Positions 16,803-57,705 of a DNA stretch of 64,000 nt are shown here, piece after piece. Within the stretch, counting starts at the first letter, position 1; each line of letters starts with the position of its first letter. The DNA is from Nemertoderma westbladi. Taxonomy: Eukaryota; Animalia; Xenacoelomorpha. The notes under the pieces were generated by a model. That model saw only the letters and a program-made list of their open reading frames with translations. It did no database searches and was not told where the DNA came from. A program made the position numbers and the translations under genes. Location of the stretch: assembly GCA_032718475.1 (NCBI GenBank), contig JAUCBJ010001861.1, positions 1 through 64,000 of the forward strand, written 5' to 3'.

Positions 16803-16949
<147 letters not shown>

Positions 16950-30455: not shown

Positions 30456-30967
30456 ACCGAGTCACCAAAAATAGTCGCAGATGTATTTTAGTACAGGCCA
30501 AGTCCCGAAAAGTGTCTGGATGATTCAATTTCTGGTGATACATATTCAATACTTAAATATATAAAAATACCACTATATTTAATTTAACTTATTGGTTAAT
30601 TCATATTAAATTCATAAATTAAAATAATTAATATATCGGTATTCTTTAAAGCCCTTCTCCTTTCGCCCGCATCATCCGATGTTAATTTTGGTGCATCAAC
30701 TTTAACAAAATATCGTGACCATGGAGACAGATTAACACCACAATTTTCAAAAAAATTCACGAAAATGACGCACGATGGCGTTATGTATCTCATGTCTCAA
30801 TCCTATATTAAGTATTATAAGATTTTGAGCTAATAGGAGAACCAGAATCCCAGAAAAACAACCCACACTGCTAAAATAGTAATAATGTTAATTTTCATTC
30901 AATTTAGTTCTGCCTATCTGAAAAAATAACCAAAAAAGTATTCTAGGTATTCTGCTAAAAGTATTCT

Positions 30968-33099: not shown

Positions 33100-33762
33100 T
33101 TCCCAACCTAAAATATATGTTACTGAATCCACACTGAGGCAAATGAGAGCGCGTTATTCTCGAAACAGTACTTTTTGTGAGTGTTGTTTTGGCTCTAGGT
33201 TTACGAGATTATGATATAGTCTTCACGAGCACATTTATGTGGAAATTTGTTTTATTTAAATAAGCGTAGCTAGACTAAATTGCCGTAGCAACCGTTGCAA
33301 TGTGTGAGACTAGCGTAGTGAGTGACATTAGTATTTTGCGTGTGAGAAAGATCCGTTGGGCGTTGAAAGGTTTTATAGTGTGAAAATCTAAGTACAGGAA
33401 ATACAATTTATTCATGTTAATATAATAATAATTTACATTGCAATCTTAGTAAATATTAAAGATATTCACGTGTTATAGAAAGTAGCGTGAGAGGAAGTCT
33501 GGCTATATTGCTCGTCTATATTGGTTTGGTTACAAAAGAACAAGGGTAATAACACTTTAGTGTTACTTTATCCACGGTATGTAATATGTAAGTTTGTTAC
33601 ATTATGTCAATTTATCAGCGTCCTGGTGATGGTGATATTCTCGCAGCGTTACGGCCTATATGTCGGAATGATGTAAGTAAAGTATAATCACTTCAATCAC
33701 TCATTTATACGTTGAGAGTATTAACCGACTGGTGCTGCAGGTGTGGATGATTGGAATTGAGA

Positions 33763-34266
33763 ACCAGCATTGTTCATTCTTAAACAACAACTCCCTTCAG
33801 TAGTGTACTGTTACTGAATTACTTATCCAATGAATGTCCCCCATGCACCAGCATTTTTCATTATTAAACAACAACTCCCTTCAGTAGTGGACTGTTACTG
33901 AATTACTTATCCAATGAATGTCCCCCATGTACCAGCATTGTTCATTATTAAACAACAACTCCCTTCGGTAGTGGACTGTTACTGAATTACTTATCCAATG
34001 AATGTCCCCCATGCACCAGCATTTTTCATTATTAAACAACAACTCCCTTCAGTAGTGGACTGTTACTGAATTACTTATCCAATGAATGTCCCCCATGTAC
34101 CAGCATTGTTCATTATTAAACAACAACTCCCTTCAGTAGTGGACTGTTACTGAATTACTTATCCAATGAATGTCCCCCATGCACCAGCATTTTTCATTAT
34201 TAAACAACAACTCCCTTCAGTAGTGGACTGTTACTGAATTACTTATCCAATGAATGTCCCCCATGT
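33763..34266. repeat. 84-bp satellite, left part (about 6 copies)
   Basis: Unit accagcattgttcattattaaacaacaactcccttcagtagtggactgttactgaattacttatccaatgaatgtcccccatgc recurs every 84 nt. Confidence 0.95.
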
Positions 34267-37200
34267 GGGGCGAGCCACGAAGTGAGAGAGCCTTAGCGTA
34301 GTGGTACCATTAATCAACCTGTCGTTCTGTCGTTCTGTCGCGTTTTTTTTCAGTATTTTATTTTAAACGTTAATAACTCGGCCAATCCTTGATGAAATCT
34401 ATCCAAACTTGGTACACATGTTGTTTGGCAAAAGTTTGAAAATTTTCCAAGTAGAATTTGCGTGGGGCCTTCGTGCAGCATCAGTGTAACTGTTATTGTA
34501 GTTATAATATATTTATTTATCCAAAATTAACATGCGTTAAATTATTATTACTGTAGGATAAATCAGCTGGTTTTCTGACAAATTTTGCAAAACATAGGGG
34601 CTGTCTGCCAATCTGCATGTACCATTTGTACCGGTACTGTCAGGCTGTAATACAGGTCAGCCGGTACCATACACTGCAGACATGCCATATCATGTAATCT
34701 AAACATGGCCCCGGAAACCCTTGCGGTGATTATAGTTTAGGCCTAATTAGCCTAGTACCGGTAATAATAATATAATAGTTTAGATAGTTCAGTAGTTACC
34801 GCTAATCATTCAGTCATTGGCACGGTACACCGTATTGCTGTACTGCCGTTCAGCCGTTGTAGTGCGCACCGTAGGTACCACCCATGCCTAGGCTGACTGT
34901 GCTGATTATGGTTTGATTGATTGATTGTTTTTTACACATAATTAAACCTTTTAAAATTCACAATAATACATTTATAAAGATTACGTTACGATATTAGGCC
35001 TACAGTACAAGTAGGCCTAATAACACTAGATATTTAGGAGCACCAATACTGATTTATGTAGATAGTCAACTTATAAAATGTTTATTTACTTAAATAAAAG
35101 GTTCTGGTGTAAGGATAGCCTCATGAGGTATATACCTCGTTTCCATGAGGGTCCTATAATAATTTTCATACTCTAATATTTAAAGCTAGTCAGACTGTGG
35201 TACCTAAGCTATATACTGTTAGGTATATTGCTGTATTGGGGTGGGGTTAGGAATAATCCATTTGTTTTAGCATTGAACTGTTGAATCCCCTTATTTATTA
35301 TAAAACCATTGGAAATATTCGCAAATGCCGCTCCATTACTGTCTGATGTCTGAAACGCTCCCGACAGTCCGATGTATCTGGACCCGAGCAGCCGAGTTGC
35401 TTCAAGAGGTGATTAACGGGGGAATACTACGGAATTGCTTGTTTGTCAGTACGATTCTATTTGGGTATTTACTACACTCAGACACTGGGAATACGGCGGT
35501 CGGTCAGATCGTAATGCGGGCCACTGCCAAGTTCATCATGCCTCACTCCGGTCACCCACCTTGGAGTGCGGTGGGAAGAGTCCCACTTACTGACTTACGT
35601 CGACGACTGGACGAATCGACGAGGATTGCGATCTGGGTTTAGCGGCGGCCCGGATCCTGGGATCGCCTGGGGGAAATGGTTGAACGTTGGGCAGACGTTA
35701 TCGCACTGGATTACGTTCTCTGTGACGCGAAAGTGTGAAGCGAATTCGTTGTCGAATTGGGTCGGAAGCTGCGGGAATTCTACTGTTCTACGGGAGTAAA
35801 CCGCAGCGGTCCGGTGACTGACTACGGACGGATACTACTGGGATAAGCAGGTATTTCGATCGAGTTTCTCGTATTCTCGATGCTCGAGGCGGATAGAGAG
35901 TTGGTTGTGTTGGGCGGTGTTGTTCAATTCTATCAAACATATTAAATAATTGGTAAAATAATAAAAACACACCAGATAAAGATACTGAGCTTATGGTAAA
36001 GAGATAGGCCGAACTTACAATTTCCAAATAGATTGTTCATATAATAAATATATTTTTGGTATTTGATTTCAAGATAGGGGGGGGGGGGGGGGGGGGGGGG
36101 GCTGGACGCAATAAAAATTCATCCCTCTCCAGGGGAAATTGGACGCAAATAACAACAGCTGATTACTCTCAAAAATAAAACTGTAACCTGTTCTATTGTG
36201 TTTACTTTATTGTTTTGGTTAAAATAACGTGCCACTGTAACCTGCTCCTTTCCCAAAATTTAGAAATTAATATTGAGGCGGGATATTAATTCGCCAAGAT
36301 GGGATTTGCGTCCAGTCCCACCCCCCTCCTATCTCTTGATTTCACTAAAAAATAGAATACATTGCATTTTACTGTTATAATTACTGTATTGAATAAAATA
36401 ATTAATTGATTGTTTATTAAACCGTGCTAAGCACGTTGAACTGGAGCTCTAACAATTCCCCACTAGCGGCAGACAGGAACTGTAAAAGTCTCTGTAGAAT
36501 TTCTAATTAAGCAATGCTCTTAGGTAACTACTACTAAATTTCAGATGAATCTGATCGTTGGTTCTATAATTACAGCTATTTTTACGTTTCTGTTAATTCG
36601 CCCCCTAGCGGCAGACCGGGGAACTGTAGAAGTCTGTCTGTGTGTAGAATTTCTAAATTTTTTTAAGACTACAAGTGTACCAAGTTTGGTTCCATTTCAT
36701 CCATGATTGACCGACTTATTAGCGTTCAAACATTCCTGCCACGAATAAAAGCTGCAGGAACTCGAGCGATAATTAATTTATTTATTATTAAATACTGTTT
36801 CAATTAAATTCTTTACGAAAATCTAGTCATCTTCTTTTAAATATGGACCCTGCATTCATGGAAAATATAATATTTGATAATTCATCAGTCACCAGTCAGC
36901 CTACGCTAATTTCACAGCAAAGTCCTTGTCATGGCCTGTGTGTAGTAGGCCATGGTACCACCCTACTACCGGTACCGGCTGACCGGTGGCAACTAGCACT
37001 TGCACAGCAACAGCCCTACCGGCGATACACAGGTTGAAATTTATGTAGAGTTTGCTCAACAGTACAGATATAAAATAGTTATCTAAATTATATATATTAC
37101 TATTGACAAGTATTGAAATATATACCGTTATTCGTGTTATCAGTATTTGCAACATCTGACATTGAAGAGGTGAGAGAAGATGAATACCGACACTCAACAA

Positions 37201-37910
37201 AACCAACGCTTATCACAGGTCGGTATGGTTACCTCGAAACCGGCGCGACTGTCCACTCGAATACAACTTCAAAACACAAACGCCAACAATAAACTGAAAG
37301 CGAATCGAACGTCTTCAGAAGAATCTGTCATTGGGACGAAGAAAAGGAAGCCGAAACCATGGGAATGGACCACAGCTAAGATTGAATGCTCCCATTGTCA
37401 GAGTTCCTGGACCGAAATTGAAACACCAATTGCCGATGGGCTTGATCTCTCAAACCAAAACTTCCTCTGCGGGGTTTGCGCGGCAGTAAAGATTGAAAGT
37501 CTGGAAGCTGGCATCCCTAGGTATTATTATTATAAAGAGCGTCAGCCTGCGTTTAATAAATATATTTTAATACAAAACAGGTCGAACGCAAAGAGGCTTA
37601 TAATGAAGACGAGTACTGCATTGATTATATTCCTATAAACCACCTGGCTTTGCATATTGAACGTGCGTTTGGAAATAAGTTCGTGCTACCCTTCCGTGGG
37701 TGGTAGATGTCGCGGTTATGTATTGGTGGGTGGGAAGGGAGGGGGGGGGGGGGGGTGCAGATTAAAAGGGGTGAACACGTACTGTCCCCCTTTCTTTGAT
37801 TAATTGGTGGTGTTGGTTAATCTCTCATAACCTGATTTTGTGATACAGTCGCACAATTTTAATTTGTATCTCATAACTGGGCCTCGTGCTGCGCGAAGGC
37901 CCCACGAACG
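34267..37910. mobile_element. 3.6-kb composite insertion (Helentron/DINE-like ends) interrupting the 84-bp satellite
   Basis: Satellite phase resumes exactly after the insert (ccatgt|insert|tgtaccagc). 5' end matches the 25308 element; 3' hairpin gggcctcg-tgctgcg-cgaaggccc; 20-bp inverted repeat 34461-34480 vs 37887-37906; inverted second ccaaacttggtacac core near 36670-36730. Confidence 0.7.
36072..36335. mobile_element. MITE with a 9-bp target-site duplication (Mutator-like), nested in the 3.6-kb insertion
   Basis: TSD ttgatttca at 36063-36071 and 36336-36344; TIRs agatagg(G)n-ctggacgcaa and ttgcgtccag-tcccacccccctcctatctc. Confidence 0.7.
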
Positions 37911-38719
37911 TGTACCAGCATTGTTCATTATTAAACAACAACTCCCTTCAGTAGTGGACTGTTACTGAATTACTTATCCAATGAATGTCCCCCATGCACC
38001 AGCATTTTTCATTATTAAGCAACAACTCCCTTCAGTAGTGGACTGATACTGAATTACTTATCCAATGAATGTCCCCCATGCACCAGCATTTTTCATTATT
38101 AAGCAACAACTCCCTTCAGTAGTGGACTGTTACTGAATTACTTATCCAATGAATGTCCCCCATGCACCAGCATTGTTCATTATTAAACAACAACTCCCTT
38201 CAGTAGTGGACTGTTACTGAATTACTTATCCAATGAATGTCCCCCATGTACCAGCATTGTTCATTATTAAACAACATCTCCCTTCAGTTGTAGTGGACTG
38301 TTACTGAATTACTTATCCAATGAATGTCCCCCATGCACCAGCATTGTTCATTCTTAAACAACAACTCCCTTCAGTAGTGGACTGTTACTGAATTACTTAT
38401 CCAATGAATGTCCCCCATGCACCAGCATTGTTCATTCTTAAACAACATATCCCTTCGGTAGTGGACTGTTACTGAATTACTTATCCAATGAATGCCCCCC
38501 ATGCACCAGCATTGTTCATTATTAAACAACAACTCCCTTCAGTAGTGGACTGTTACTGAATTACTTATCCAATGAATGTCCCCCATGCACCAGCATTGTT
38601 CATTCTTAAACAACATATCCCTTCAGTGGTGGACTGTTACTGAATTACTTATCCAATGAATGTCCCCCATGCACCAGCATTGTTCATTCTTAAACAACAT
38701 ATCCCTTCAGTAGTGGACT
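37911..38719. repeat. 84-bp satellite, right part (about 9-10 copies)
   Basis: Same unit as 33763-34266. Confidence 0.95.
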
Positions 38720-39084
38720 AGAATATGCCACTTAGGGGCCTCCATTACAATAATTTGTATATAATTATGTTTTTGAGGCAGTGTATGTACATGTTTCTTA
38801 CATTCTGACTTATATTTTAGGAATGGCCGGCGATAAAGAGTACCGGGGTCCCTTCTGGTCAGCTGAAGTCTATACCGACTATGCAAGACTACTTCTAACT
38901 TTAAGGTAAAGTATATAACATTTAAGTTATATACTGTAGCTGCTATAATTTATAAACATTACTTCTGAAAGGCTGTCAATGCTAGAGATACCAGATTTCA
39001 ACTTTCAATTAAGATAGAACATAAGACAAGTGGATTTTGAAAGTTAAAAGCTCATGTGTGACCCGGGCCTTAATGAAGATCCGT

Positions 39085-41292
39085 TATCATCTCGACTTAC
39101 TATGCGTCAATTCCCCACTCACCTTGAGTTTAGCGACTAGTTTTTTACGTTCTCTCCTCGACTTACTATACGTCACTTCCCCACTCACCTTGAGTTTAGC
39201 GACTAGTTTTTTACGCTCTCTCCTCGACTTACTATACGTCACTTCCCCACTCACCTTGAGTTTAGCGACTAGTTTTTTACGTTCTCACCTCGACTTACTA
39301 TACGTCACTTCCCCACTCACCTTGAGTTAAGCGACTAGTTTTTTACGTTCTCTCCTCGACTTACTATACGTCACTTCCCCACTCACCTTGAGTTTAGCGA
39401 CTAGTTTTTTACGTTCTCTCCTCGACTTACTATACGTCACTTCCCCACTGACCTTGAGTTTAGCGACTAGTTTTTTACGTTCTCTCCTCGACTTACTATA
39501 CGTCACTTCCCCACTCACCTTGAGTTTAGCGACTAGTTTTTTACGTTATCTCCTCGACTTACTATACGTCACTTCCCCACTCACCTTGAGTTTTAGCGAC
39601 TAGTTTTTTACGTTCTCTCCTCGACTTACTATACGTCACTTCCCCACTGACCTTGAGTTTAGCGACTAGTTTTTTAAGTTCTCTCCTCGACTTACTATAC
39701 GTCACTTTCCCACTCACCTTGAGTTTAGCGACTAGTTTTTTACGTTCTCTCCTCAACTTACCTTACGTCACTTCCCCACTCACCTTGAGTTTAGCGACTA
39801 GTTTTTTACGTTCTCTCCTCGACTTACCTTACGTCACTTCCCCACTCACCTTGAGTTTAGCGACTAGTTTTTTACGTTCTCTCCTCGACTTACCTTACGT
39901 CACTTCCCCACTCACCTTGAGTTTAGCGACTAGTTTTTTACGTTCTCTCCTCGACTTACTATACGTCACTTCCCTATCTACCTTGAGTTTAGCGACTAGT
40001 TTTTTACGTTCTCTCCTCAACTTACCTTACGTCACTTCCCCACTCACCTTGAGTTTAGCGACTAGTTTTTTACGTTCTCTCCTCGACTTACTATACGTCA
40101 CTTCCCCACTCACCTTGAGTTTAGCGACTAGTTTTTTACGTTCTCTCCTCAACTTACCTTACGTCACTTCCCCACTCACCTTGAGTTTAGCGACTAGTTT
40201 TTTACGTTCTCTCCTCAACTTACCTTACGTCACTTCCCCACTCACCTTGAGTTTAGCGACTAGTTTTTTACGTTCTCTCCTCAACTTACCTTACGTCACT
40301 TCCCCACTCACCTTGAGTTTAGCGACTAGTTTTTTACGTTCTCTCCTCGACTTACTATACGTCACTTCCCCACTCACCTTGAGTTTAGCGACTAGTTTTT
40401 TACGTTCTCTCCTCGACTTACCTTACGTCACTTCCCCACTCACCTTGAGTTTAGCGACTAGTTTTTTACGTTCTCTCCTCGACTTACCTTACGTCACTTC
40501 CCCACTCACCTTGAGTTCAGCGACTAGTTTTTTACGTTCTCTCCTCGACTTACTATACGTCACTTCCCCACTCACCTTGAGTTTAGCGACTAGTTTTTTA
40601 CGTTCTCTCCTCGACTTACTATACGTCACTTCCCCACTCACCTTGAGTTTAGCGACTAGTTTTTTACGCTCTCTCCTCGACTTACTATACGTCACTTCCC
40701 CACTCACCTTGAGTTTAGCGACTAGTTTTTTACGTTCTCTCCTCGACTTACTATACGTCACTTCCCCACTCACCTTGAGTTTAGCGACTAGTTTTTTACG
40801 TTCTCTCCTCAACTTACTATACGTCACTTCCCCACTCACCTTGAGTTTAGCGACTAATTTTTTCCGTTCTCTCCTCGACTTACTATACGTCACTTCCCCA
40901 CTCACCTTGAGTTTAGCGACTAGTTTTTTACGTTCTCTCCTCGACTTACTATACGTCACTTCCCCACTCACCTTGAGTTTAGCGACTAGTTTTTTACGTT
41001 CTCTCCTCGACTTACTATACGTCACTTCCCCACTCACCTTGAGTTTAGCGACTAGTTTTTTACGTTCTCTCCTCGACTTACTATACGTCACTTCCCCACT
41101 CACCTTGAGTTAAGCGACTAGTTTTTTACGTTCTCTCCTCAACTTACTATACGTCACTTCCCCACTCACCTTGAGTTAAGCGACTAGTTTTTTACGTTCT
41201 CTCCTCGACTTACTATACGTCACTTCCCCACTCACCTTGAGTTTAGCGACTAGTTTTTTACGTTCTCTCCTCGACTTACTATACGTCACTTC
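39085..41292 (-). repeat. 66-bp splice-donor satellite, distal part (about 33 copies)
   Basis: Same unit as 46449-53234, separated from it by the LTR retrotransposon. Confidence 0.97.
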
Positions 41293-41457
41293 TGTAAATA
41301 TCTATGATATGTGTAAAATGTATAATTGTAGTAACGTGTGCAACGAACAAGTTCTAGAATAGTTAGTTTGAATATATTCTGGATTGTATTGCGTGAAAGT
41401 GTTTGTTGATAATAAATAAGCGTTGTGGTATAATATAGCAGTATTTAGTATTAACAA

Positions 41458-41468
41458 TGGTAGCAGAG
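41458..41468 (+). promoter_or_regulatory. Primer-binding site complementary to the 3' end of animal initiator tRNA-Met
   Basis: TGGTAGCAGAG one nt after the 5' LTR; complement of ...CUCUGCUACCA. Confidence 0.85.
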
Positions 41469-41613
41469 CGTACCGACCAATCTTAATCCCTCTTTTTAGC
41501 GTTAAAAAAAAAGATAGTGTATTGCGTAAATTTACACTCAGTATTGCGTAGCGTGGAGGCATTGCGAAACTTACTATCGTGTTGGTATTAAAAAAAAAAA
41601 AATACATGTTGAG

Positions 41614-44600
41614 ATGGCGTTAAGATTGAATCCACCTGAGTTTAAGAAAGACTCAAAGAGTTATGAGCGTTATAAACGAGAACTATTAGCTTGGCGAGAA
41701 ATAACTGATCTTCCTAAATCTAAACAGGGTATAGCTATTGCATTATCCCTTCCAGAGGAAGGGGATTCTAAGATTAGAGAGAAAGTGTTCGATGAGATTT
41801 CCATTGAAGATTTAAAGGGCGAGGATGGACTAGGTGAACTTATAAAGTACCTAGATGAGAAGTTAGGTAAAGACGATTTAGAAGATTGTCTCGAAAAGTT
41901 TGAGGACTTCGAAGATTTCCATCGAGACGAGATTTGCAATATATCAGAATATGTTTCAATGTTTGATCAGAAATATCAGCGAATAAAGAGACTTGGTATG
42001 AGTCTCCCTCCAGAAATTTTGGCCTTTAAATTATTAAGGAGATCTGCCATTTCTATAGAAGAAAAAATGTTAGTACTCACCGGAATGGATTATTCTCAGA
42101 AGGTGACATTATATGATCAAGCACAAAAGTCTTTAAAAAAATTCATTAGCAAGGGAACATCCGGATTACAAAGTGCGGCCATTAAACTTGAACCAACCTT
42201 TCTTGCCCAAAATGAAGAGGCACTAGCGGCTGCTGGTTACTATCATTCCTCTAGGAGTAACCCTAATTGGCAACGTGGTGGTGGTGGTGGTAGAGTTCGG
42301 AGGGACGTTGGACATTTTGAATCCACAAGGCGGTATGTTCCTCCCAGTTATAAGAAAGATGCTGGTAATTTGGGCTGTTCAGGTCACCGAATTAGTGCAG
42401 TTCGAGCCCAAGACAGGAAAGTGAATCCCGCTGGTACTGATGGAAAACCTCTTACTTGTCGATGCTGTGGTTCATTTCGACATCTTTTAAGAGATTGTCC
42501 TGATAGTTGGGAAAATCTGGAGAAAGTCCACTACACTAATAATGATCACAAATTTCACGATTCTATGATGCCTGCAGAACTAAACCTGTCTGAAAAGACG
42601 ACCCCATCGGAAATATTGGAGGAGTATGATTGTGAAGATGTTCTGCTAAGTGTGTTCACTACGACCTCATCATCCACTGAGATTTATCAACTTGGCGTTG
42701 AAGCTTCCAATTGTGCTGTATTGGATAGCGCCTGTACCAGCACTGTATGTGGAAAGGATTGGATCAACAACTACATTTCCAGTTTATGCGATACTTACAG
42801 ATCCAAAATTCAATTGAATGAGGGTCACAAAATATTCAAATTTGGTGGTGGCACCAAGCTGAGATCAATTTCTGAATGTTTAATTCCAGCTTTTATAGCC
42901 GGGCGGGATGTTCAAATTCGAACAGATGTTGTAGAATCCGATATTCCACTACTGCTTTCCAGGGAATCTATGAAGCGCGCACAAATGACTTTGGACTTGA
43001 ATTCTGATGAAGCCACAGTTTTTGGCAGACGCATATCTTTAAATACTACATCAACTGGACATTACTGTATTCCAATTATGGAAGATATACCAGAAAATTA
43101 CGTCCGTGCAGTTAACTTTACTGCAATGGATGACAAGCACCTTCATCAAACTATTCTGAAATTACACCGTCAATTTGCTCATCCATCAGCCAAAAAACTG
43201 ATAAATCTCCTAAAAGATGCTAAGGTATGGCAAGATAGTTGTAAACCTATAGTTGACGATATTGTAGAACATTGTGAAGTTTGTAAGCGATTCAAAAAAT
43301 CTCCACCGATTCCCATTGTTGGACTACCAATGGCAAGTGAATTTAATCAAGTTGTGGCTATCGATCTTAAGGTTTGGGAAAAACAGTGGATACTCCATAT
43401 GGTAGACGTATGGTCTCGCTATACTGTATCCGTCTTCGTTTCAAGTAAATTACCTTGTGTCATTGTTGATAAAATGATGACTAACTGGCTTTCCATTTTC
43501 GGTATTATGGGCGGTATAATGAGTGATAATGGTGGGGAATTCAACTCAGATGAAATACGGGAAGTAGCTTCAATATTAAATGTAAATTTACATACCACAG
43601 CTGCTCGAGCACCTTATCAAAATGGATTATGTGAGCGAAATCATTCTATTACAGACCGTATGCTCAGTAAACTTAAAGAGGATAATCCTCAGATCTCAGA
43701 ACATATCTTATTGCCTTGGGCAAATATGGCTAAAAACTCTCTCCAGATGTGGAACGGTTTCAGCAGTCATCAACTTGTGTTCGGCAAAAATCCTAAATTA
43801 CCATGTACTATGACTTCAAATCCCCCAGCACTGGAAGGTTCAACCACAAGTAAAGCATTTGCTAACCATTTGAACGCCCTTCATGCAACTAGAGAAGCTT
43901 TTGTACAATCTGAAGCTGATGAGCGTATTCGTAGAGCTTTGAGACATAAAGTACGAGCATCAGAACAGACTTTTCAGAATGGCGATCTTGTTTATTATAA
44001 ACATGATAGTAAAAATAGATGGCTGGGCCCTGCCAAAGTGGTTTTTCAGGATGGCAAGGTGGTGTTCGTGCGTCACGGAGGTGTATTCATTCGTCTTTCT
44101 CCTAATCGTCTCATTGCTATTAATTCACTTGAACAAATTCCCGCAGTTCAAGTTCCTGATGACTTCAAGCCAGAGGCAGTTTCCAAACTTGTGGATAACA
44201 ATTGTGGCACAATAAGAAATACAGCAGCTCTGACACCAGTATTAAAGCATACTGTACCAACCAGTTCAACTGGAATCAACAATTGCGGTCTTCAGGAAAT
44301 GATCTCGACAATTGTGCCATCTAACAAAGACACAAATGTAGACAATAACTCAAACAATCTAAAGTCTAAACAAAAATCCACAAATAACGTGAACTCCTTG
44401 CCACATTCAGCACAATGTATTAAATTTCTTGATCATGACACACAGCAATGGCTTACAGCGACTGTTATGGGTCGTGCTGGTAAAGCATCAGGAAAGTATA
44501 GGGATTGGTTTAACGTGGAGGAGTCTAATGGAGTTTAGAGGTGCATCGACTTTGGTTCTAACCCTTGGATCCAAGGTGATGCGACTAATGAAGTAAATTT

Positions 44601-46104
44601 AGTTCTCATTCCCAGAAAAGATCAGTCTTCTCCTGAGTGCCAACAAGCAAAATTAGAGGAGCTACAAAAATTGAGAGATTTTGAAGTCTATCAAGAGCTA
44701 CCTTTCAACGGACAACCATGCATATCGACGCGGTGGGTTCTATGGCATAAGGGAACAGAGATTCGTGCCCGTCTAGTTGCCAGAGGATTTGAAGAGCAAA
44801 TTGAGGTAGCTACAGACTCTCCTACAGTTGCAAAATGTACACTTCGTACATTTTTGGCTATCGTTTCCAGTAAAAAATGGGTTCTAAAAACAACTGACAT
44901 AAAATCTGCCTTTCTCCAAGGTGAATCCCTAGTACGTGATGTCTTCCTCAATCCACCCCAGGAGGCTGATGCGCCGTTGGGATATATTTGGCGATTAAAT
45001 AAGTGCTTGTATGGTTTGAATGACGCAGCTCGTCAGTTCTACAATAGTGTGGTAGAAGAGATGTTGACCCTCGGTTGCAGCCAATCTCCATTAGACCCTG
45101 CTCTATTTTATTTTAGAGAGGATGGCAATCTTTCCGGTATTTTAGTCTCACACATTGACGATTTCCTGCATGCAGGAAATCAAAACTTCGAGTCAAAAGT
45201 TATACACAATCTCACCAACAGATTTCTTGCGGGAAAGGAAGCAGCTAATCAATTTACTTACGTTGGTTTTGAATTATGTCAGCTTCCTAATGAGATAATT
45301 TTAAACCAGGAATCATACTTAAAGAATATTGAGATAAAAGACATACCATTATCATTGAGCAAGTCCACAAAAAATGAAAATTTAGGCCCATCTGACCTTA
45401 CCATGTACCGGTCTCTAGTTGGTAAACTTAATTGGCTCGTGCAAGGGTCTCGCCCAGACTGGTCCTTTGAGCTAATAGATCTTAGCACACACTTCAGGGA
45501 TGCTCGAATGGAACACTTATTGCGAATCAGAAAAATTTTGCTAAATGTCAAAGATAGAAATGCTTTCATTGTGTTCCCAAACTTAGGTAACCCAATCAAT
45601 TGGTATCTAATTTTATTTACTGATGCTTCATTAGCTAATCTAGCAGACGGAATGAGCAGTACTATGGCATTTGTTCTGTATCTAGTTGGCATAGATAATC
45701 GCTCCTGTCCTCTTTCTTGGAATGTTTGCAAGATTAAACGCGTTGTCCGGTCTACGATAGCTGCAGAGGCGTTAAGTCTTCAAGAAGGTCTAGAGCAATC
45801 GATATACACAAGAGGTGTCATTAGAGAAATAATTGGTGATGGTGATTCTTTAAAGATACCCATCCGCGCGTATGTCGACAACAAGAGTGTCGTTGAAGCC
45901 ATTCACTCAACGAAATTGGTTGATGACAAGCGACTACGAATCGATATTGGGGCTATAAAACAATCCCTAGAGAAGGGTGAAGTTGAATATGTGCGTTGGT
46001 GCCCAGGTTCCATGCAAATCGCAGATTGTTTGACAAAAAAAGGAGCATCCGGATTTCATCTCCTGGAGAGTATACAACATGGTCGAATTGACTTTCTACG
46101 ATAA
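41614..46104 (+). pseudogene. Copia gag-pol polyprotein interrupted by one in-frame TAG (44536-44538)
   Basis: Zn knuckle CRCCGSFRHLLRDC; protease VLDSACTSTV; integrase HRQFAH...CEVC, SDNGGEF, NGLCER; RT RARLVARGF, DIKSAFLQG, LYGLNDAAR, HIDDF; RNase H FTDAS, AAEALS, VDNKS, IADCLTK. ORFs 41614 and 44671 share a frame with no other stop between them. Confidence 0.9.
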
Positions 46105-46448
46105 TGTAACGATTTGTCAGTAGACTATGTTATAAACCATTGGAGTGTAACTCACATGTGATTGATATTTAGAACAACAACAAAAAAAAAACATAATTTA
46201 TACTAATCTATGATTGAATCTCTAGGATGAATATCTACATATATTTAGGATAAAGAAGGACTAAAAAAAAAGTATTTGTATTAATGTTAATATCTATGAT
46301 ATGTGTAAAATGTATAATTGTAGTAACGTGTGCAACGAACAAGTTCTAGAATAGTTAGTTTTAATATATTCTGGATTGTATTGCGTGAAAGTGTTTGTTG
46401 ATAATAAATAAGCGTTGTGGTATAATATAGCAGTATTTAGTATTAACA

Positions 46449-49400
46449 ACTTCCCCACTGACCTTGAGTTTAGCGACTAGTTTTTTACGTTCTCTCCTCG
46501 ACTTACTATACGTCACTTCCCCACTCACCTTGAGTTTAGCGACTAGTTTTTTACGTTCTCTCCTCGACTTACTATACGTCACTTCCCCACTGACCTTGAG
46601 TTTAGCGACTAGTTTTTTACGTTCTCTCCTCGACTTACTATACGTCACTTCCCCACTCACCTTGAGTTTAGCGACTAGTTTTTTACGTTCTCTCCTCGAC
46701 TTACCTTACGTCACTTCCCCACTCACCTTGAGTTTAGCGACTAGTTTTTTACGTTCTCTCCTCGACTTACCTTACGTCACTTCCCCACTCACCTTGAGTT
46801 TAGCGACTAGTTTTTTACGTTCTCTCCTCGACTTACCTTACGTCACTTCCCCACTCACCTTGAGTTTAGCGACTAGTTTTTTACGTTCTCTCCTCGACTT
46901 ACTATACGTCACTTCCCCACTCACCTTGAGTTTAGCGACTAGTTTTTTACGTTCTCTCCTCAACTTACTATACGTCACTTCCCCACTCACCTTGAGTTTA
47001 GCGACTAGTTTTTTACATTCTCTCCTCGACTTACTATACGTCACTTCCCCACTCACCTTGAGTTTAGCGACTAGTTTTTTACGTTCTCTCCTCGACTTAC
47101 TATACGTCACTTCCCCACTCACCTTGAGTTTAGCGACTAGTTTTTTACGCTCTCTCCTCGACTTACTATACGTCACTTCTCCACTCACCTTGAGTTTAGC
47201 GACTAGTTTTTTACGTTCTCTCCTCAACTTACTATACGTCACTTCCCCACTCACCTTGAGTTTAGCGACTAGTTTTTTACGTTCTCTCCTCGACTTACTA
47301 TACGTCACTTCCCCACTCACCTTGAGTTTAGCGACTAGTTTTTTACGTTCTCTCCTCAACTTACTATACGTCACTTCTCCACTCACCTTGAGTTTAGCGA
47401 CTAGTTTTTTACGTTCTCTCCTCGACTTACTATATGTCACTTCCCCACTGACCTTGAGTTTAGCGACTAGTTTTTTACGTTATCTCCTCGACTTACTATA
47501 CGTCACTTCCCCACTCACCTTGAGTTTAGCGACTAGTTTTTTACGTTCTCTCCTCAACTTACTATACGTCACTTCCCCACTCACCTTGAGTTTAGCGACT
47601 AGTTTTTTACGTTCTCTCCTCGACTTACTATACGTCACTTCCCCACTCACCTTGAGTTTAGCGACTAGTTTTTTATGTTCTCTCCTCGACTTACTATACG
47701 TCACTTCCCCACTCACCTTGAGTTTAGCGACTAGTTTTTTACGTTCTCTCCTCGACTTACTATACGTCACTTCCCCACTCACCTTGAGTTTAGCGACTAG
47801 TTTTTTACATTATCTCCTCGACTTACTATACGTCACTTCCCCACTCACCTTGAGTTTAGCGACTAGTTTTTTACGTTCTCTCCTCGACTTACTATACGTC
47901 ACTTCCCCACTCACCTTGAGTTTAGCGACGAAGTTTTTTACGTTCTCTCCTCGACTTACTATACGTCACTTACCCACTCACCTTGAGTTTAGCGACTAGT
48001 TTTTTACGTTCTCTCCTCGACTTACTATACGTCACTTCCCCACTCACCTTGAGTTTAGCGACTAGTTTTTTACGTTCTCTCCTCGACTTACTATACGTCA
48101 CTTCCCCACTCACCTTGAGTTTAGCGACTAGTTTTTTACGTTCTCTCCTCGACTTACTATACGTCACTTCCCCACTCACCTTGAGTTTAGCGACTAGTTT
48201 TTTACGTTCTCTCCTCGACTTACTATACGTCACTTCCCCACTCACCTTGAGTTTAGCGACTAGTTTTTTACGTTCTCTCCTCGACTTACTATACGTCACT
48301 TCCCCACTCACCTTGAGTTTAGCGACTAGTTTTTTACGTTCTCTCCTCAACTTACTATACGTCACTTCCCCACTCACCTTGAGTTTAGCGACTAGTTTTT
48401 TACGTTCTCTCCTCGACTTACCTTACGTCACTTCCCCACTCACCTTGAGTTTAGCGACTAGTTTTTTACGTTCTCTCCTCGACTTACCTTACGTCACTTC
48501 CCCACTCACCTTGAGTTTAGCGACTAGTTTTTTACGTTCTCTCCTCGACTTACTATACGTCACTTCCCCACTCACCTTGAGTTTAGCGACTAGTTTTTTT
48601 ACGTTCTCTCCTCGACTTACTATACGTCACTTCCCCACTGACCTTGAGTTTAGCGACTAGTTTTTTACGTTCTCTCCTCGACTTACCTTACGTCACTTCC
48701 CCACTCACCTTGAGTTTAGTGACTAGTTTTTTACGTTCTCTCCTCGACTTACCTTACGTCACTTCCCCACTGACCTTGAGTTTAGCGACTAGTTTTTTAC
48801 ATTCTCTCCTCGACTTACTATACGTCACTTCCCCACTGACCTTGAGTTTAGCGACTAGTTTTTTACATTCTCTCCTCGACTTACTATACGTCACTTCCCC
48901 ACTCACCTTGAGTTTAGCGACTAGTTTTTTTACGTTCTCTCCTCGACTTACTATACGTCACTTCCCCACTGACCTTGAGTTTAGCGACTAGTTTTTTACG
49001 TTCTCTCCTCGACTTACCTTACGTCACTTCCCCACTCACCTTGAGTTTAGTGACTAGTTTTTTACGTTCTCTCCTCGACTTACCTTACGTCACTTCCCCA
49101 CTGACCTTGAGTTTAGCGACTAGTTTTTTACATTCTCTCCTCGACTTACTATACGTCACTTCCCCACTGACCTTGAGTTTAGCGACTAGTTTTTTACATT
49201 CTCTCCTCGACTTACTATACGTCACTTCCCCACTCACCTTGAGTTTAGCGACTAGTTTTTTACGTTCTCTCCTCGACTTACTATACGTCACTTCCCCACT
49301 CACCTTGAGTTTAGCGACTAGTTTTTTACGTTCTCTCCTCGACTTACTATACGTCACTTCCCCACTCACCTTGAGTTTAGCGACTAGTTTTTTACGTTCT

Positions 49401-52400
49401 CTCCTCGACTTACTATACGTCACTTCCCCACTCACCTTGAGTTTAGCGACTAGTTTTTTACGTTCTCTCCTCGACTTACTATACGTCACTTCCCCACTCA
49501 CCTTGAGTTTAGCGACTAGTTTTTTACGTTCTCTCCTCGACTTACTATACGTCACTTCCTCACTGACCTTGAGTTTAGCGACTAGTTTTTTACGTTCTCT
49601 CCTCGACTTACTATACGTCACTTCCCCACTCACCTTGAGTTTAGCGACTAGTTTTTTACGTTCTCTCCTCGACTTACTATACGTCACTTCCCCACTCACC
49701 TTGAGTTTAGCGACTAGTTTTTTACGTTCTCTCCTCGACTTACTATACGTCACTTCCCCACTCACCTTGAGTTTAGCAACTAGTTTTTTACGTTCTCTCC
49801 TCGACTTACTATACGTCACTTCTCCACTCACCTTGAGTTTAGCGACTAGTTTTTTACGTTCTCTCCTCGACTTACTATACGTCACTTCCCCACTGACCTT
49901 GAGTTTAGCGACTAGTTTTTTACGTTCTCTCCTCGACTTACTATACGTCACTTCCTCACTCACCTTGAGTTTAGCGACTAGTTTTTTACGTTCTCTCCTC
50001 GACTTACTATATGTCACTTCCCCACTCACCTTGAGTTTAGCGACTAGTTTTTTACGTTCTCTCCTCGACTTACTATACGTCACTTCCCCACTGACCTTGA
50101 GTTTAGCGACTAGTTTTTTACGTTCTCTCCTCGACTTACTATACGTCACTTCCCCACTCACCTTGAGTTTAGCGACTAGTTTTTTACGTTCTCTCCTCGA
50201 CTTACTATACGTCACTTCCCCACTCACCTTGAGTTTAGCGACTAGTTTTTTACGTTCTCTCCTCGACTTACTATGCGTCACTTCCCCACTCACCTTGAGT
50301 TTAGCGACTAGTTTTTTACGTTCTCTCCTCGACTTACTATACGTCACTTCCCCACTCACCTTGAGTTTAGCGACTAGTTTTTTACGTTCTCTCCTCGACT
50401 TACTATACGTCACTTCCCCACTCACCTTGAGTTTAGCGACTAGTTTTTTTACGTTCTCTCCTCGACTTACTATACGTCACTTCCCCACTCACCTTGAGTT
50501 TAGCGACTAGTTTTTTACGCTCTCTCCTCGACTTACTATACGTCACTTCCCCACTCACCTTGAGTTTAGCGACTAGTTTTTTACGTTCTCTCCTCGACTT
50601 ACTATACGTCACTTCCCCACTGACCTTGAGTTTAGCGACTAGTTTTTTACGTTCTCTCCTCGACTTACTATACGTCACTTCCCCACTCACCTTGAGTTTA
50701 GCGACTAGTTTTTTACGCTCTCTCTTCGACTTACTATACGTCACTTCCCCACTCACCTTGAGTTTAGCGACTAGTTTTTTACGTTCTCTCCTCGACTTAC
50801 TATACGTCACTTCCCCACTCACCTTGAGTTTAGCGACTAGTTTTTTACGTTCTCTCCTCGACTTACTATACGTCACTTCCCAACTCACCTTGAGTTTAGC
50901 GACTAGTTTTTTACGTTCTCTCCTCGACTTACTATACGTCACTTCCCCACTCACCTTGAGTTTAGCGACTAGTTTTTTACGTTCTCTCCTCGACTTACTA
51001 TACGTCACTTCCCCACTCACCTTGAGTTTAGCGACTAGTTTTTTACGCTCTCTCCTCGACTTACTATACGTCACTTCCCCACTCACCTTGAGTTTAGCGA
51101 CTAGTTTTTTACGTTCTCTCCTCGACTTACTATACGTCACTTCCCCACTCACCTTGAGTTTAGCGACTAGTTTTTTACGTTCTCTCCTCGACTTACTATA
51201 CGTCACTTCCCCACTCACCTTGAGTTTAGCGATTAGTTTTTTACGTTCTCTCCTCGACTTACTATACGTCACTTCCCCACTCACCTTGAGTTTAGCGACT
51301 AGTTTTTTACGCTCTCTCCTCGACTTACTATACTTCACTTCCCCACTCACCTTGAGTTTAGCGACTAGTTTTTTACGTTCTCTCCTCGACTTACTATACG
51401 TCACTTCCCCACTCACCTTGAGTTTAGCGACTAGTTTTTTACGTTCTCTCCTCGACTTACTATACGTCACTTCCCCACTCACCTTGAGTTTAGCGACTAG
51501 TTTTTTACGTTCTCTCCTCGACTTACTATACGTCACTTCCCCACTCACCTTGAGTTTAGCGACTAGTTTTTTACGTTCTCTCCTCGACTTACTATACGTC
51601 ACTTCCCCACTCACCTTGAGTTTAGCGACTAGTTTTTTACATTCTCTCCTCGACTTACTATACGTCACTTCCCCACTCACCTTGAGTTTAGCGACTAGTT
51701 TTTTACGTTCTCTCCTCAACTTACCTTACGTCACTTCCCCACTCACCTTGAGTTTAGCGACTAGTTTTTACGTTCTCTCCTCGACTTACTATACGTCACT
51801 TCCCCACTCACCTTGAGTTTAGCGACTAGTTTTTTACGTTCTCTCCTCGACTTACTATACGTCACTTCCCCACTGACCTTGAGTTTAGCGACTAGTTTTT
51901 TACGTTCTCTCCTCGACTTACTATACGTCACTTCCCCACTCACCTTGAGTTTAGCGACTAGTTTTTTACGTTCTCTCCTCGACTTACTATACGTCACTTC
52001 CCCACTCATCTTGAGTTTAGCAACTAGTTTTTTACGTTCTCTCCTCGACTTACTATACGTCACTTCCCCACTCACCTTGAGTTTAGCGACTAGTTTTTTA
52101 CGTTCTCTCCTCGACTTACTATACGTCACTTCCCCACTCACCTTGAGTTTAGCGACTAGTTTTTTTACGTTCTCTCCTCGACTTACTATACGTCACTTCC
52201 CCACTCACCTTGAGTTTAGCGACTAGTTTTTTACGCTCTCTCCTCGACTTACTATACGTCACTTCCCCACTCACCTTGAGTTTAGCGACTAGTTTTTTAC
52301 GTTCTCTCCTCGACTTACTATACGTCACTTCCCCACTGACCTTGAGTTTAGCGACTAGTTTTTTACGTTCTCTCCTCGACTTACTATACGTCACTTCCCC

Positions 52401-53234
52401 ACTCACCTTGAGTTTAGCGACTAGTTTTTTACGCTCTCTCCTCGACTTACTATACGTCACTTCCCCACTCACCTTGAGTTTAGCGACTAGTTTTTTACGT
52501 TCTCTCCTCGACTTACTATACGTCACTTCCCCACTCACCTTGAGTTTAGCGACTAGTTTTTTACGTTCTCTCCTCGACTTACTATACGTCACTTCCCCAC
52601 TCACCTTGAGTTTAGCGACTTGTTTTTTACGTTCTCTCCTCGACTTACTATACGTCACTTCCCCACTCACCTTGAGTTTAGCGACTAGTTTTTTACGTTC
52701 TCTCCTCGACTTACTATACGTCACTTCCCCACTCACCTTGAGTTTAGCGACTAGTTTTTTACGTTCTCTCCTCGACTTACTATATGTCACTTCCCCATTC
52801 ACCTTGAGTTTAGTGACTAGTTTTTTACGCTCTCTCCTCGACTTACTATACGTCACTTCCCCACTCACCTTGAGTTTAGCGACTAGTTTTTTTACGTTCT
52901 CTCCTCGACTTACTATACGTCACTTCCCCACTCACCTTGAGTTTAGCGACTAGTTTTTTACGTTCTCTCCTCGACTTACTATACGTCACTTCCCCACTCA
53001 CCTTGAGTTTAGCGACTAGTTTTTTACGTTCTCTCCTCGACTTACTATACGTCACTTCCCCACTCACCTTGAGTTTAGCGACTAGTTTTTTACGCTCTCT
53101 CCTCGACTTACTATACGTCACTTCCCCACTCACCTTGAGTTTAGCGACTAGTTTTTTACGTTCTCTCCTCGACTTACTATACGTCACTTCCCCACTCACC
53201 TTGAGTTTAGCGACTAGTTTTTTACGTTCTCTCC
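46449..53234 (-). repeat. 66-bp satellite (about 103 copies here) made of the PRP4K exon-end/5' splice-site junction
   Basis: Minus unit GGAGAGAACGTAAAAAACTAGTCGCTAAACTCAAG|GTGAGTggggaagtgacgtatagtaagtcga; the first copy is the real donor at 53200/53199. Confidence 0.97.
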
Positions 53235-53315
53235 GTCTTCTTTCGATTATAGCTTCTTCGTCTTCAAAATCCACATCATCGTCTATCGGCTCATCCGATT
53301 CGGGAGCTCGTTGAC
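53200..53315 (-). CDS. PRPF4B: PRP4 kinase exon (GQRAPESDEPIDDDVDFEDEEAIIERRRRERKKLVAKLK)
   Basis: EDEEA.IE.RR..R..+V.K motif conserved in PRP4K; acceptor cttctccttcaag|, donor AAG|GTGAGT; phase 1 to phase 0. Confidence 0.9.
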
Positions 53316-53329
53316 CTTGAAGGAGAAGA

Positions 53330-54317
53330 ATAGGATCAACTGATAGGATCAACTGATATGATCAACTGATAGGATCAACTGATAGAATCAACTGATAGGA
53401 TCAACTGATAGGATCAACTGATAGGATCAACTGATAGGATCAACTGATAGGATCAACTGATAGGATCAACTGATAGGATCAAGTGATAGGATCAACTGAT
53501 AGGATCAACTGATAGGATCAACTGATAGGATCAACTGATAGGATCAACTTATATGATCAACTGATAGGATCAACTGATAGGATCAACTGATAGGATCAAC
53601 TGATAGGATCAACTGATAGGATCAACTGATAGGATCAACTGATAGGATCAACTGATAGGATCAACTGATAGAATCAACTGATAGGATCAACTGATAGAAT
53701 CAACTGATAGGATCAACTTATATGATCAACTGACAGGATCAACTGATAGGATCAACTGATAGAATCAACTGATAGGATCAACTGATAGGATCAACTTATA
53801 TGATCAACTGATAGGATCAACTGATAGGATCAACTGATAGGATCAACTGATAGGATCAACTGATAGGATCCACTGATAGGATCAACTGATAGGATCAACT
53901 GATAGGATCAACTGATAGGATCAACTGATAGGATCAACTAATAGGATCAACTGATAGGATCAACTTATATGATCAACTGATAGGATCAACTGATAGGATC
54001 AACTGATAGGATCAACTGATAGGATCAACTGATAGGATCAACTGATAGGATCAACTGATAGGATCAACTGATAGGATCAACTGATAGGATCAACTGATAG
54101 GATCAACTGATAGAATCAACTGATAGGATCAAATGATAGAATCAACTGATAGGATCAACTTATATGATCAACTGATAGGATCAACTGATAGGATCAACTG
54201 ATAGAATCAACTGATAGGATCAACTGATAGGATCAACTTATATGATCAACTGATAGGATCAACTGATAGGATCAACTGATAGGATCAACTGATAGGATCA
54301 ACTGATAGGATCAACTG
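53330..54317 (-). repeat. 13-bp satellite (about 76 copies) abutting the polypyrimidine tract and containing the likely branch point
   Basis: Plus unit ataggatcaactg; minus unit cagTTGATcctat; the A of the last TTGAT lies 21 nt before the exon start at 53315. Confidence 0.95.
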
Positions 54318-54556
54318 TTGTTATTTATATAGTTTGTAATAATAAAATAATTTGATGGTAATATTACATATATATGGAGATAGAAAACAGGACGAGGACA
54401 GGAAGTGTAATTACATAATTACTAAACAAATAATATACATAATTACATATGAAGCGGATGTAGTTTAGGATATTTCGTAAAACTACGGAAAGCGCCTTTA
54501 TTAATCGGGATATAAAGATTCCAAAATCTCTTTGTAATACGAATCTGTAAGTTTAC

Positions 54557-54831
54557 CTTCGCTATTTTTACGTTTGCGTTCAGTTTTATGTTCCCTATGC
54601 GATCTTCTCTCATTGTCATCCCGTTTCTCGCCATGCCTCTTCGAACGATCGCCATCCCTGCTATACCTGCTGTCTCTGTGGTCCCGATCCGTTCTGCCAC
54701 TACTATATCGGCGGTCATTAACCCAGTTACCAGACGGTCGGTTGCTATAGTAACGTTGATCAACCCCGTCTCTGTAATTATAGTTCCAGCTTTGCCTGTT
54801 TCCCCATCCCATCGAGTTATGGTCTCTATAC
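54557..54831 (-). CDS. PRPF4B: PRP4 kinase exon, R/D/S-rich N-terminal region (RYRDHNSMG...RKRKNSE)
   Basis: Acceptor ttttttcag|, donor GAAG|GTAAAC; phase 2 to phase 1 consistent with neighbours; RS/RD-rich composition. Confidence 0.75.
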
Positions 54832-54981
54832 CTGAAAAAATAAAAGTTAAAAGAGACTGAAAGACGTGGGGCCAATATTAAAAAATAGATAACAGAATTA
54901 GTTACCACCAGCACTAGTGTAGCATGGAACACTACGACTACGGAGCAACGTGTACAGGTAAAATGATAATAACAACTAGAC

Positions 54982-55080
54982 CTGTAATCTGACCCAGACC
55001 GATGCCAATTGTCTCTCCTCTGATTGGCTGGAGAACGACGGCGTCCACCATCATCATCCCTTCTGCTCCTCAACGGTTCC
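54982..55080 (-). CDS. PRPF4B: PRP4 kinase exon (REPLRSRRDDDGGRRRSPANQRRDNWHRSGSDY)
   Basis: Acceptor ggttacag|, donor CAG|GTCTAG; 99 nt, phase 2 to phase 2; RRRSP motif. Confidence 0.7.
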
Positions 55081-56554
55081 CTGTAACCGAAGAATTAATT
55101 GATATTAATATTAATTAACGGTAATTAAAACAAAACAAACCCAAATAAAATTAGATTATTCGCTGGGTCTCTGATTCGTCGTCAGTTATCCATGTTGACT
55201 ATTTTCTCAAGCTATATGGTAGAGTAGTCAGTGTCACTCACTTCACATAATCAATTTTGTCTGTGTCAAAGTACCTCTAGTTGCTGCAAACACTGGTTCC
55301 TGTTACACATGAGTGCGGACAGACGACCCACACACATGGGACTGAACACCAAATCCCACAAGTTTGAGGAGTTTAACTCAGACTAGTTACTACCACTAAA
55401 CCAAAAAGGAGAAACTCACACTTCATATCTTAAAGGCAGTTTTTTCATTGAACAAAACAACCCACGAATGGCATATAAACTTAAACCCACCAACAATTGA
55501 TTCTATATATCAACTTTTAGCATCGTACCGGTAGTTAGATCCCTTATAGATCCTAGATCTAGATCCCTTATTCTCACAACGAACAGGCCCTATACTATTT
55601 TGCTCACCTACTACATACCTGTTGCTGTTGTACTTGGTGTTACTGATTAAATTGGATTCATTAATATTAATAATATTTTATTTGCTAGACCTTAATATTT
55701 CCCAACGTGAGAGTATTAGTCACAAATAATTATATTGCCTTAAGACCTTAATATACTTTCCAACGGTCCGGCCTTTTATTCCAATATAGTGATAGTATTA
55801 GTATATAGTATATAATAATTATAAGAATAATTTAGTATATTATTATATTGCTCAGATTGAGGTGCTGATTTTATAGATGACTTTATGTATTTTACATGTT
55901 TTACTATTATATTATCAATTTACCTTTTACTTAATAAAGCCGCCGGTGGCGTAAGTCTGGATGAATAAATAAAAAATAAGTTAATCATATTACGCCTAAG
56001 TCCACTGCAGCTCTAAACAGCTACTATCCTGACTGAGCATTGCTGATTAATGCGTTTTCTATGCACAGGCTTCATATATTTCGAAAGCACCATAGGAAGC
56101 TCGAACGTGCTATATTTTCTCAAAATAAAGCATGTGTATTGTGGAACGAATCAGGGCACATTGTATTTATTGGCACAGATTGTATATTCAATTTTCATAA
56201 CAACGAAACTTCTGGTGATTGTCGCCTTCAATCACTGTCCATCACTCCATCAGTCATCTAACTTATTGTCAAATATTAGTGCGACATGGCTCATGACATA
56301 GTCAACAAAATATTTAATGGAGTTTTGCAGGTACAGAAAACTACGCAGCAAGTGGGCAGTGGGCACCAAAGCAAGAATGCAGATTTCAGCGATGGTTGAC
56401 GAGAAGGAACACAATTAACATGTGCGGCGACCCAAATGGAAGATTGCCTTGACGCATTGCATAAACATCCCAATGGTGCATCATATGGTAAAATCTATAT
56501 CGATCGTAAGGGTCTATCAATACTACAATTGAAATTAACAACAATTTTACGAAC

Positions 56555-57705
56555 CTGTCTTTACTGCGTCGCTTTTCGTGACTCCGACTGCGCCCCTTAT
56601 CGCGACTCCGGCTGTGTTTCCAATCTCCACCATCACCCTCCGACTCCAACCTAGACCGGCGCCCGCTCTCACACTCAGAGTCCCTTTTTATCCGTCTGTC
56701 AGTTTCTCCGGAGTCCCTTTTTGCTAGTCTGTCAGTATTGTCCGAGTCATTTCTGATCCGTCTGCCACTATCGCCGGAGTCTATTTTTTTATGTCTGTCA
56801 GTTTCACCTGAGTCCTTTTTAATCAACCTGTCAGTTTCATCTGAGATTCGCTTTGCTCTCCTATCAGCGCCAGTCTCTGAATCCCTTACGACCCGTCGAT
56901 CAGCCATCGAATCACGTTTCATCTGTTGTTCCGTCTCAATGTCTAATTCCCGACCACTTTGCCTTTTCAATTCAACCATCGACCTTTCCGATTTTACCAC
57001 CACATCCCTTTTCGATGACCGTTCGGACTCTTTGGTCTGAATATCATTGCCCTCAACAGAGTCCCTCTTAGTCCGTCGCTTATATTCGCCTTCCTCCTGC
57101 CCTAACCGAGCCCTTCTCGAATCTACGGGGCGTTCCATCTCCGAGCCATCGGTCCTTTCCTCTCGCAGTAACTGCCGTCGGAGTTTCTCCTTCTGGGCTT
57201 CCAACCTCCGGGTTTCCTCTTCCTCGCTATCGGAACTGCCGTCCCGATGACGAGTTCGTTTAACGCGGCGACTCTTGTGTTCCTCCTCGTCGCGGTGAAC
57301 CAACCCCAACTCCGAGGATCTCGGTTTGGAACTCGTCGACTCATCCTCCCGGTGGTGACGTTTCCGAGCCGCGTGGATCCGCGGTGGGGAATGTTCCGGA
57401 GTCGACAGCTCCTCCGGAGTTCGTTTAGATCGCCGTCGATCCACTTCGGGGGAGCTGCGACCTTTACGACGGAGTTTCTCCTCCTTCTCTTTTCCCGACT
57501 CAGCCATCGATCCCCCAGTTATCAGTTTTGCTTCCTCGAATATTTTCCTTTGAATCTGCTTGGCAGTTTTCTCGATTTTGTAATCTGTATCAGATATCTC
57601 ACCTTCCTCGCTTTCGCTTTGGTAGTTTTTACCTAATTGAGTGAGAACGTGGTCAATATCAGTATCTTTAGTCTTCGACGATTTGTGCGCTTTAGAAGAT
57701 TGCAC
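56555..57705 (-). CDS. PRPF4B: PRP4 kinase large RS/charged exon (VQSSKAHK...SRSHEKRRSKD)
   Basis: 1151 nt open; ESEEGEI motif and RS-rich sequence typical of the PRP4K N-terminus; acceptor ttttcttag|, donor CAG|GTTCGT. Confidence 0.85.

Follow-up and report, generated by a model that had tools for sequence, protein, structure and literature searches.

A 13-nt minisatellite overlying the predicted branch-point region of a PRP4 kinase intron in Nemertoderma westbladi

Tandem repeats that copy a splice signal have been described in several animal genes. In lancelets, the so-called mirages are tandem copies of exon edges, found in Adh3, BflGb6, BflGb9, troponin C, and PGBD5, and according to the accessible parts of the reports they leave splicing undisturbed (PMC3087553, PMC3902484). 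Minisatellites that reiterate a donor include the 37-bp VNTR in intron 7 of human F7 and the repeats of IFI6 (6-16), CBS, LMNB2, and PDGF, where the first one to three donors are reported to be used (PMC1557585). In human NARS2, splicing declines with increasing length of a repeat located between the branch site and the acceptor, and a TNA motif within the repeat restores it in silico, as far as the available sections of that report go (PMC10078293). A literature search covering titles and the openings of abstracts, with subscription papers outside its scope, revealed no minisatellite of a branch site alone, apart from the tandem motifs of Gomafu.

Here we describe tandem arrays in a stretch of 64,000 nucleotides (64 kb) of N. 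westbladi, referred to below as the window. Like the mirages, in so far as the cited texts describe them, these arrays are local amplifications at exon edges, on both the donor and the acceptor side, with several in one gene. We focus on a 13-nt array situated directly upstream of an acceptor.

The host gene and its donor-spanning repeats

Homology and canonical splice sites identify the host gene as a PRP4 kinase (PRPF4B-like) gene on the minus strand. The gene model contains 10 exons in the range 6608..57705, and the gene extends past both ends of it. The eight exons between 54831 and 6608 yield, once joined, a 397-residue frame with no stop, which aligns with five named PRP4 homologues at 45-65% identity (E 1e-75 to 1e-83); the frame is open across the modelled junctions. 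One kinase exon shares 78-86% identity with its 120 best database matches, the named ones of which include PRP4 homologues, and, as in the PRP4 kinase (PRPF4B) family, conserved NWDD-GYY and acidic-basic stretches precede the kinase domain. The exon next to the 13-nt array has 116 nt (53200..53315, minus strand) and, judging by the alignment with the five homologues, encodes the conserved acidic-basic stretch N-terminal of the kinase domain. It runs from phase 1 to phase 0, and therefore its skipping shifts the frame. The upstream coding exon (54557..54831, minus strand) is Arg/Ser/Asp-rich, and the donor of the array-bearing intron lies at 54557.

Three long genes with single ORFs are situated within or beyond the introns of the kinase gene. 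They encode an SVOP-like MFS transporter (23507-24946, minus strand), a 1,328-residue ORF with a thrombospondin type 1 domain (26469-30455, plus strand), and, in two exons, an EF-hand/WD40 (WDY-like) protein (1149-6271, plus strand). Products of the neighbouring genes share at most 24-39% identity with database proteins. The nesting of genes may be reminiscent of ctenophores, judging by the passages available (PMC8527503). Metagenome scans with neighbouring exons did not find a relative, as none of 598 and none of 98 pattern matches were confirmed.

Tandem arrays occupy 47% of the window, and in four introns they account for 80-97% of the sequence; most arrays carry no branch motif. The initial annotation stated that the donor of the 116-nt exon is amplified on the side opposite to the 13-nt array, and this is indeed the case. 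A 66-nt unit, consisting of about 34 nt of the exon end and 32 nt of the intron start, crosses the exon-intron boundary and reiterates the splice site in 136 downstream copies, 103 of them in one block (46449..53234) and 33 in another (39091..41292), both on the minus strand. GT follows the exon end in 135 of the 136 copies. The two blocks are separated by an LTR retroelement on the plus strand (41293..46448), which has near-identical LTRs of about 160 nt, a 5-nt target duplication, and two ORFs, of which one, the first, weakly matches an integrase and the second has no match in Pfam. Given the near-identical LTRs, the insertion is likely to be recent.

The length of the 66-nt unit is a multiple of three, and the unit is stop-free in the exon frame (53200-52878, minus strand); the first five donors are in frame, adding 22 residues each, until a 1-nt length variant breaks the frame. 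Judging from the reading frame, donors 2-5 would escape decay if used. Another variant of the unit gives rise to an additional, consensus-like donor, AG followed by GTAAGT (51726-39763, minus strand), which is present in 10 copies of the first block and 9 copies of the second one, that is, on both sides of the retroelement.

Two further arrays span donors: a 50-mer with 47 donors (17353-19677, minus strand) and a 26-mer with about 109 copies (7307-10138, minus strand). Donor-spanning arrays thus occur at three of the ten modelled donors of one gene, far over a uniform null (p 0.0001-0.0014 with introns collapsed to their single-copy state); this null presupposes uniform seeding and was set up once the data were known. 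Because three of the ten donors carry arrays, it is not surprising to see an exon flanked by arrays on either side. The excess of donor-spanning arrays, although of a known kind, is the stronger signal in the window.

Several other arrays have features of their own. Those at 17353-19677 and 30968-33099 have identical 21-26 nt at the start and the end, with 24-27 nt of filler per unit; in the filler of the 50-mer, 8 nt of the donor junction are present as an inverted copy (read by eye, with no null), which could be the mark of a templated repair insertion. A G-rich 24-mer array (10381-16727) comprises 97% of a 6.5-kb intron, with 76 nt separating it from the donor and 120 nt from the acceptor. 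The same 84-mer array is present twice, at a distance of 3.6 kb (33763-34265 and 37914-38719), unlike the locus-specific arrays. Finally, upstream of the modelled exons, each copy of a 40-mer array (58704-64000) contains about two YTRAY motifs on the gene strand, and no obvious acceptor adjoins the array; it is a branch-like array with no apparent role in splicing.

The 13-nt array and the adjoining acceptor

The 13-nt minisatellite (53330..54317, minus strand) makes up 80% of an intron of 1,241 nt. The remainder consists of a unique AT-rich 5' part (54318..54556, minus strand), which begins at the upstream donor, and a single-copy 14-nt flank with the pyrimidine tract and the AAG acceptor (53316..53329, minus strand), which directly abuts the last unit and lies outside the amplified sequence. 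The copy number had been put at about 76, and the count agrees: the 988 nt of the array are exactly 76 × 13 nt with no indels, as also reported by TRF, and both edges are blunt. Consensus units number 51, and the other 25 belong to eight variant types. One pair of adjacent variant units recurs six times, and a stretch of about ten units is repeated too; such block-wise recurrence, as expected from the duplication of blocks inside an array, shows past turnover. The array is known from one haplotype, and the fact that its variants are interspersed speaks against a simple collapse or expansion error of the assembly. The unit has no match elsewhere in the 64-kb window at 0-1 mismatch.

The unit was said to match the branch consensus YTRAY, and TTGAT is in fact kept in 75 of the 76 units. 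In the last five units, the branch-like A's are located at -21, -34, -47, -60, and -73 relative to the acceptor G at 53316. The coordinates therefore confirm that the A of the last copy is at -21 from the AAG acceptor and that this copy runs into the pyrimidine tract; indeed, all numbers of the initial annotation hold on recount. A nearby CAG in each copy had been proposed too, which is true for 67 units and not for the rest. Overall, the array contains 74 AGs (67 CAG, 6 AAG, and 1 TAG).

The proposal that these AGs form a working ladder of cryptic acceptors is not supported. At the true acceptor (53316), the -20 to -5 stretch is 94% pyrimidine, with a 12-nt run, and the score is about 8.4-8.5. 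By contrast, in the same stretch of the array AGs the pyrimidine content is 61% and no run exceeds 4 nt, so that the units lack a working pyrimidine tract, and the scores vary from -3.8 to 2.3 with a mean of 0.1 (73 of the 74 scored). The nine other modelled acceptors score 4.7-12.6 in a leave-one-out calculation; the matrix is small, being built from these nine sites only. The array mean is reached by 27% of 337 decoy intron AGs. Furthermore, 71 of 73 array AGs have another AG 13 nt upstream, and the use of 73 of the 74 would be followed by a premature stop. The one exception is the CAG of the last unit (53340..53342, minus strand), which is in frame and stop-free, would add 24 nt or eight residues, and scores 0.0. 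The true acceptor is the only AAG among the ten modelled ones, and since it is an AAG, a CAG could compete with it; CAG is found at four of the nine others.

Branch-point choice within the array

The array extends from -15 to -1002, and the only A's of the 3' flank are those at -3 and -2. Hence, nearly any adenosine branch must fall inside the repeat. As the repeat fills the branch zone, the real question is which copy branches. Human branch points are mostly found at -20 to -49, according to the portions of the study available (PMC5959240). The last TTGAT (53335..53339, minus strand; A at 53336) is the likeliest branch motif of the intron, as its A at -21 falls into the usual range and the motif abuts the 12-nt pyrimidine run. 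The first AG upstream of the true acceptor is at -25, and under a scanning model this limits branching to the last two units.

The spacing of AGs points to the same copies. Each TTGAT A has AGs 9 nt and 22 nt downstream. For every TTGAT copy other than those with their A at -21 or -34, an AG situated more than 9 nt past the A precedes the true AG. Mammalian splicing uses the first AG to follow the branch point, except when this AG is so close (within ca. 12-15 nt) that it can be bypassed (PMC1431707, as excerpted), while clinical data, as far as summarised in PMC9284458, already show a risk from AGs more than 6 nt downstream. If these mammalian rules apply to the PRP4 kinase intron, then only -21 and, less cleanly, -34 would lead to the acceptor at 53316; the second-last TTGAT (53348..53352, minus strand; A at 53349) is the sole other copy predicted to reach it. 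Branching at -47 would be expected to lead to the CAG at 53340, and branching further upstream to a premature stop. Taken at face value, the motif positions thus predict branching at the last one or two copies.

While the repeat itself is beyond chance, the branch-like content of the 13-mer is not strongly so. When 13-nt seeds from unique non-coding DNA were tandemised, YTRAY arose in 16% of 7,899 of them, and in 20% of 20,000 shuffles of the unit; YTRAY and YAG together occurred in 2.7% of the seeds and 4.5% of the shuffles. YTRAY is present in most copies of three of the eight array blocks examined. Two figures count against the explanation that we favour below: the low combined frequency of YTRAY and YAG, and the finding that a 13-nt seed placed in the collapsed intron of the array would include the 5-nt motif in only 3.5% of placements. 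By the collapsed-intron null described above, the probability that at least one of 6-8 arrays touches the -15 to -45 zone is 0.12-0.21. The claim that the phenomenon is not restricted to 5' splice sites goes too far for a single case, with the acceptor outside the unit and with p of 0.12-0.21 for one array in a branch zone.

No signal of selection on the array AGs or on TTGAT was seen within the 13-nt array. One of the eight variant types hits the motif, which is not significant (p 0.12), and allowing for the mutability of G/C, which vary 2.5-fold more in five other array blocks than the remaining bases, gives p of 0.22.

The RNA of the array is predicted to fold into rods via a 10-nt near-palindrome that covers both the motif and the AG. 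We considered a self-masking hairpin and rejected it, as 35% of 300 arrays of shuffled units fold as well and the last copy is predicted to be no more open than the others. In addition, an 8-bp bulged hairpin can form between the last unit and the acceptor junction, but its stability is within the range of shuffles (z -1.1 for RNA, -1.6 for DNA).

The match to YTRAY might be incidental, the branch nucleotide being some other residue of the last units, such as the A at -16, -26, -29, or -44, or a non-A. The motif appears in 16-20% of random 13-nt seeds, and TTGAT pairs weakly with U2, forming one Watson-Crick and four wobble pairs. Its score of 3.0 is below that of the best candidate in eight of the nine other introns, equal to the ninth, and matched by the variant A at -44. 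Moreover, three of the nine other modelled acceptors lack YTRAY at -12 to -50, and U2 complementarity is reported to correlate poorly with branch use in human introns, at least in the accessible text (PMC5959240). However, no more than 1-2 of 6 positions are paired for the A's at -16, -26, and -29, the A at -44 is followed after 19 nt by an AG that precedes the true acceptor, and TTGAT is a top candidate in two other introns of the gene as well, which makes an incidental match rather unlikely. It is very unlikely that the CAG at 53340 serves as the main or a regular second acceptor, adding eight residues in frame from a branch point at -47. It is the only in-frame, stop-free AG of the array, it is a CAG like four of the nine other acceptors, whereas 53316 is an AAG, and the 5' edge of the 116-nt exon is not fixed by protein homology; yet it scores 0.0 compared with 8.4, and its use would leave a 12-nt pyrimidine run and then an AG inside the exon.

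A functional role for the upstream copies would require that their branches and CAGs divert part of the transcripts to isoforms containing a stop, or soak up branch-binding factors, with the copy number tuning the kinase. The 13-nt period does place an AG at +9 (bypassable) and another at +22 (usable) after each branch A, and the real acceptor is an AAG. In published examples, to the extent that the sources cover them, the tandem branch motifs of Gomafu bind SF1 and slow splicing (PMC3116199), and branch points are more numerous in introns that precede SR poison exons (PMC5959240). Nevertheless, the unit lacks a pyrimidine tract and its AGs score near 0, a level matched by 27% of the 337 decoys; SF1 binding is lower for degenerate yUnAy motifs, according to the same parts of the Gomafu report (PMC3116199); no selection on TTGAT or AG is seen; and other introns of the gene are filled by arrays with no branch motif. 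We therefore regard such a role as distinctly improbable. The stronger version, in which the array is a copy-number dial with 75 motifs, upstream branching onto array CAGs, and decay of a length-dependent share of PRP4K transcripts, combined with lineage-wide, splicing-linked seeding of minisatellites (three donors and one branch site) far above chance, seems unlikely to us. The unit could also have come from elsewhere, either as a dispersed satellite or as an insertion templated by the inverted exon junction, replacing an old branch point. The pairing of the last unit with the acceptor junction in the 8-bp bulged hairpin and the occurrence of the 84-mer at two places in the gene are in line with such an origin, but the hairpin is not beyond shuffles (z -1.1 and -1.6) and no second copy of the unit exists in the 64 kb at 0-1 mismatch, so this origin has little to recommend it.

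Origin of the array and its relation to known systems

The explanation that we favour, and consider probable, is that the 13-nt array is a local duplication of the branch-point region that grew to 76 units by ordinary repeat turnover and was tolerated, since one TTGAT remains 21 nt from the sole pyrimidine tract and AG whatever the number of units. Collapsing the array yields a 266-nt intron with one TTGAT at -21, which suggests a single-copy ancestral state. The repeat would have arisen in place and grown by slippage or unequal exchange. With one strong pyrimidine tract defining the acceptor, branching would occur on the last copy (-21) and at times on the second-last one (-34). The upstream copies would be mostly inert, and rare use of their AGs would lead to premature stops. 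The branch-like content may reflect a survival filter, for which NARS2 offers a precedent, as a repeat with no motif at this place would push the branch point out of range. In that case, the motif in the 13-mer would be a condition of survival rather than a sign of function. Most likely, the array is a tolerated by-product of a repeat-prone gene and not a splicing switch.

As a neutral repeat, the array would be of modest importance. It is also a natural test bed for branch-point choice, having 75 near-identical motifs in a row that differ in position alone. Variant units allow lariat reads to be assigned to a copy, 24 nt of upstream sequence being enough to identify -21, 11 nt for -34, 59 nt for -47, and 46 nt for -60. 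The array could be used to ask whether the branch point is chosen solely by its proximity to the pyrimidine tract, an acceptor-side counterpart of the donor experiments in F7. If our reading is correct, it would also imply a survival rule for intron repeats, namely that the unit adjoining the tract must carry its own branch motif.

Among the described systems, the lancelet mirages, as presented in the accessible texts, are directly fitted by the 66-, 50-, and 26-mer arrays. The 13-nt array is likewise specific to its locus, with 76 head-to-tail units beside an exon and no other match within the window. However, mirages span the exon-intron boundary, whereas the 13-mer stops 14 nt short of it (the array ends at 53330 and the acceptor G is at 53316) and copies a branch-like motif and a CAG that is not the acceptor. 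The 66-mer shares with the F7 VNTR a reiterated splice signal; in F7, the copy adjoining the exon is used and the others are largely silent, in the sections of the report available (PMC1557585). Repeats of the F7 type are on the donor side and have 5-25 copies according to the same source, while the donor copies here number up to 136 and the motif reiterated by the 13-mer is branch-like. Similar to the repeat in NARS2, the 13-mer occupies the slot from the branch to the acceptor, and in both cases the effect hinges on a branch motif; the NARS2 unit, as described in the accessible part of the report (PMC10078293), has no such motif and its expansion is harmful, whereas the 13-mer carries one and its expansion is predicted to be neutral. 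Gomafu/MIAT and the 13-mer both have tandem branch-point motifs in RNA. In Gomafu, as far as the source text extends (PMC3116199), these are perfect UACUAAC motifs, conserved across species, located in a non-coding exon, and with SF1 binding shown, while the 13-mer has the degenerate TTGAT and is intronic. Thus, the 66-mer belongs to the known kind of donor VNTRs, and the 13-mer is a branch-only variant of splice-boundary minisatellites.
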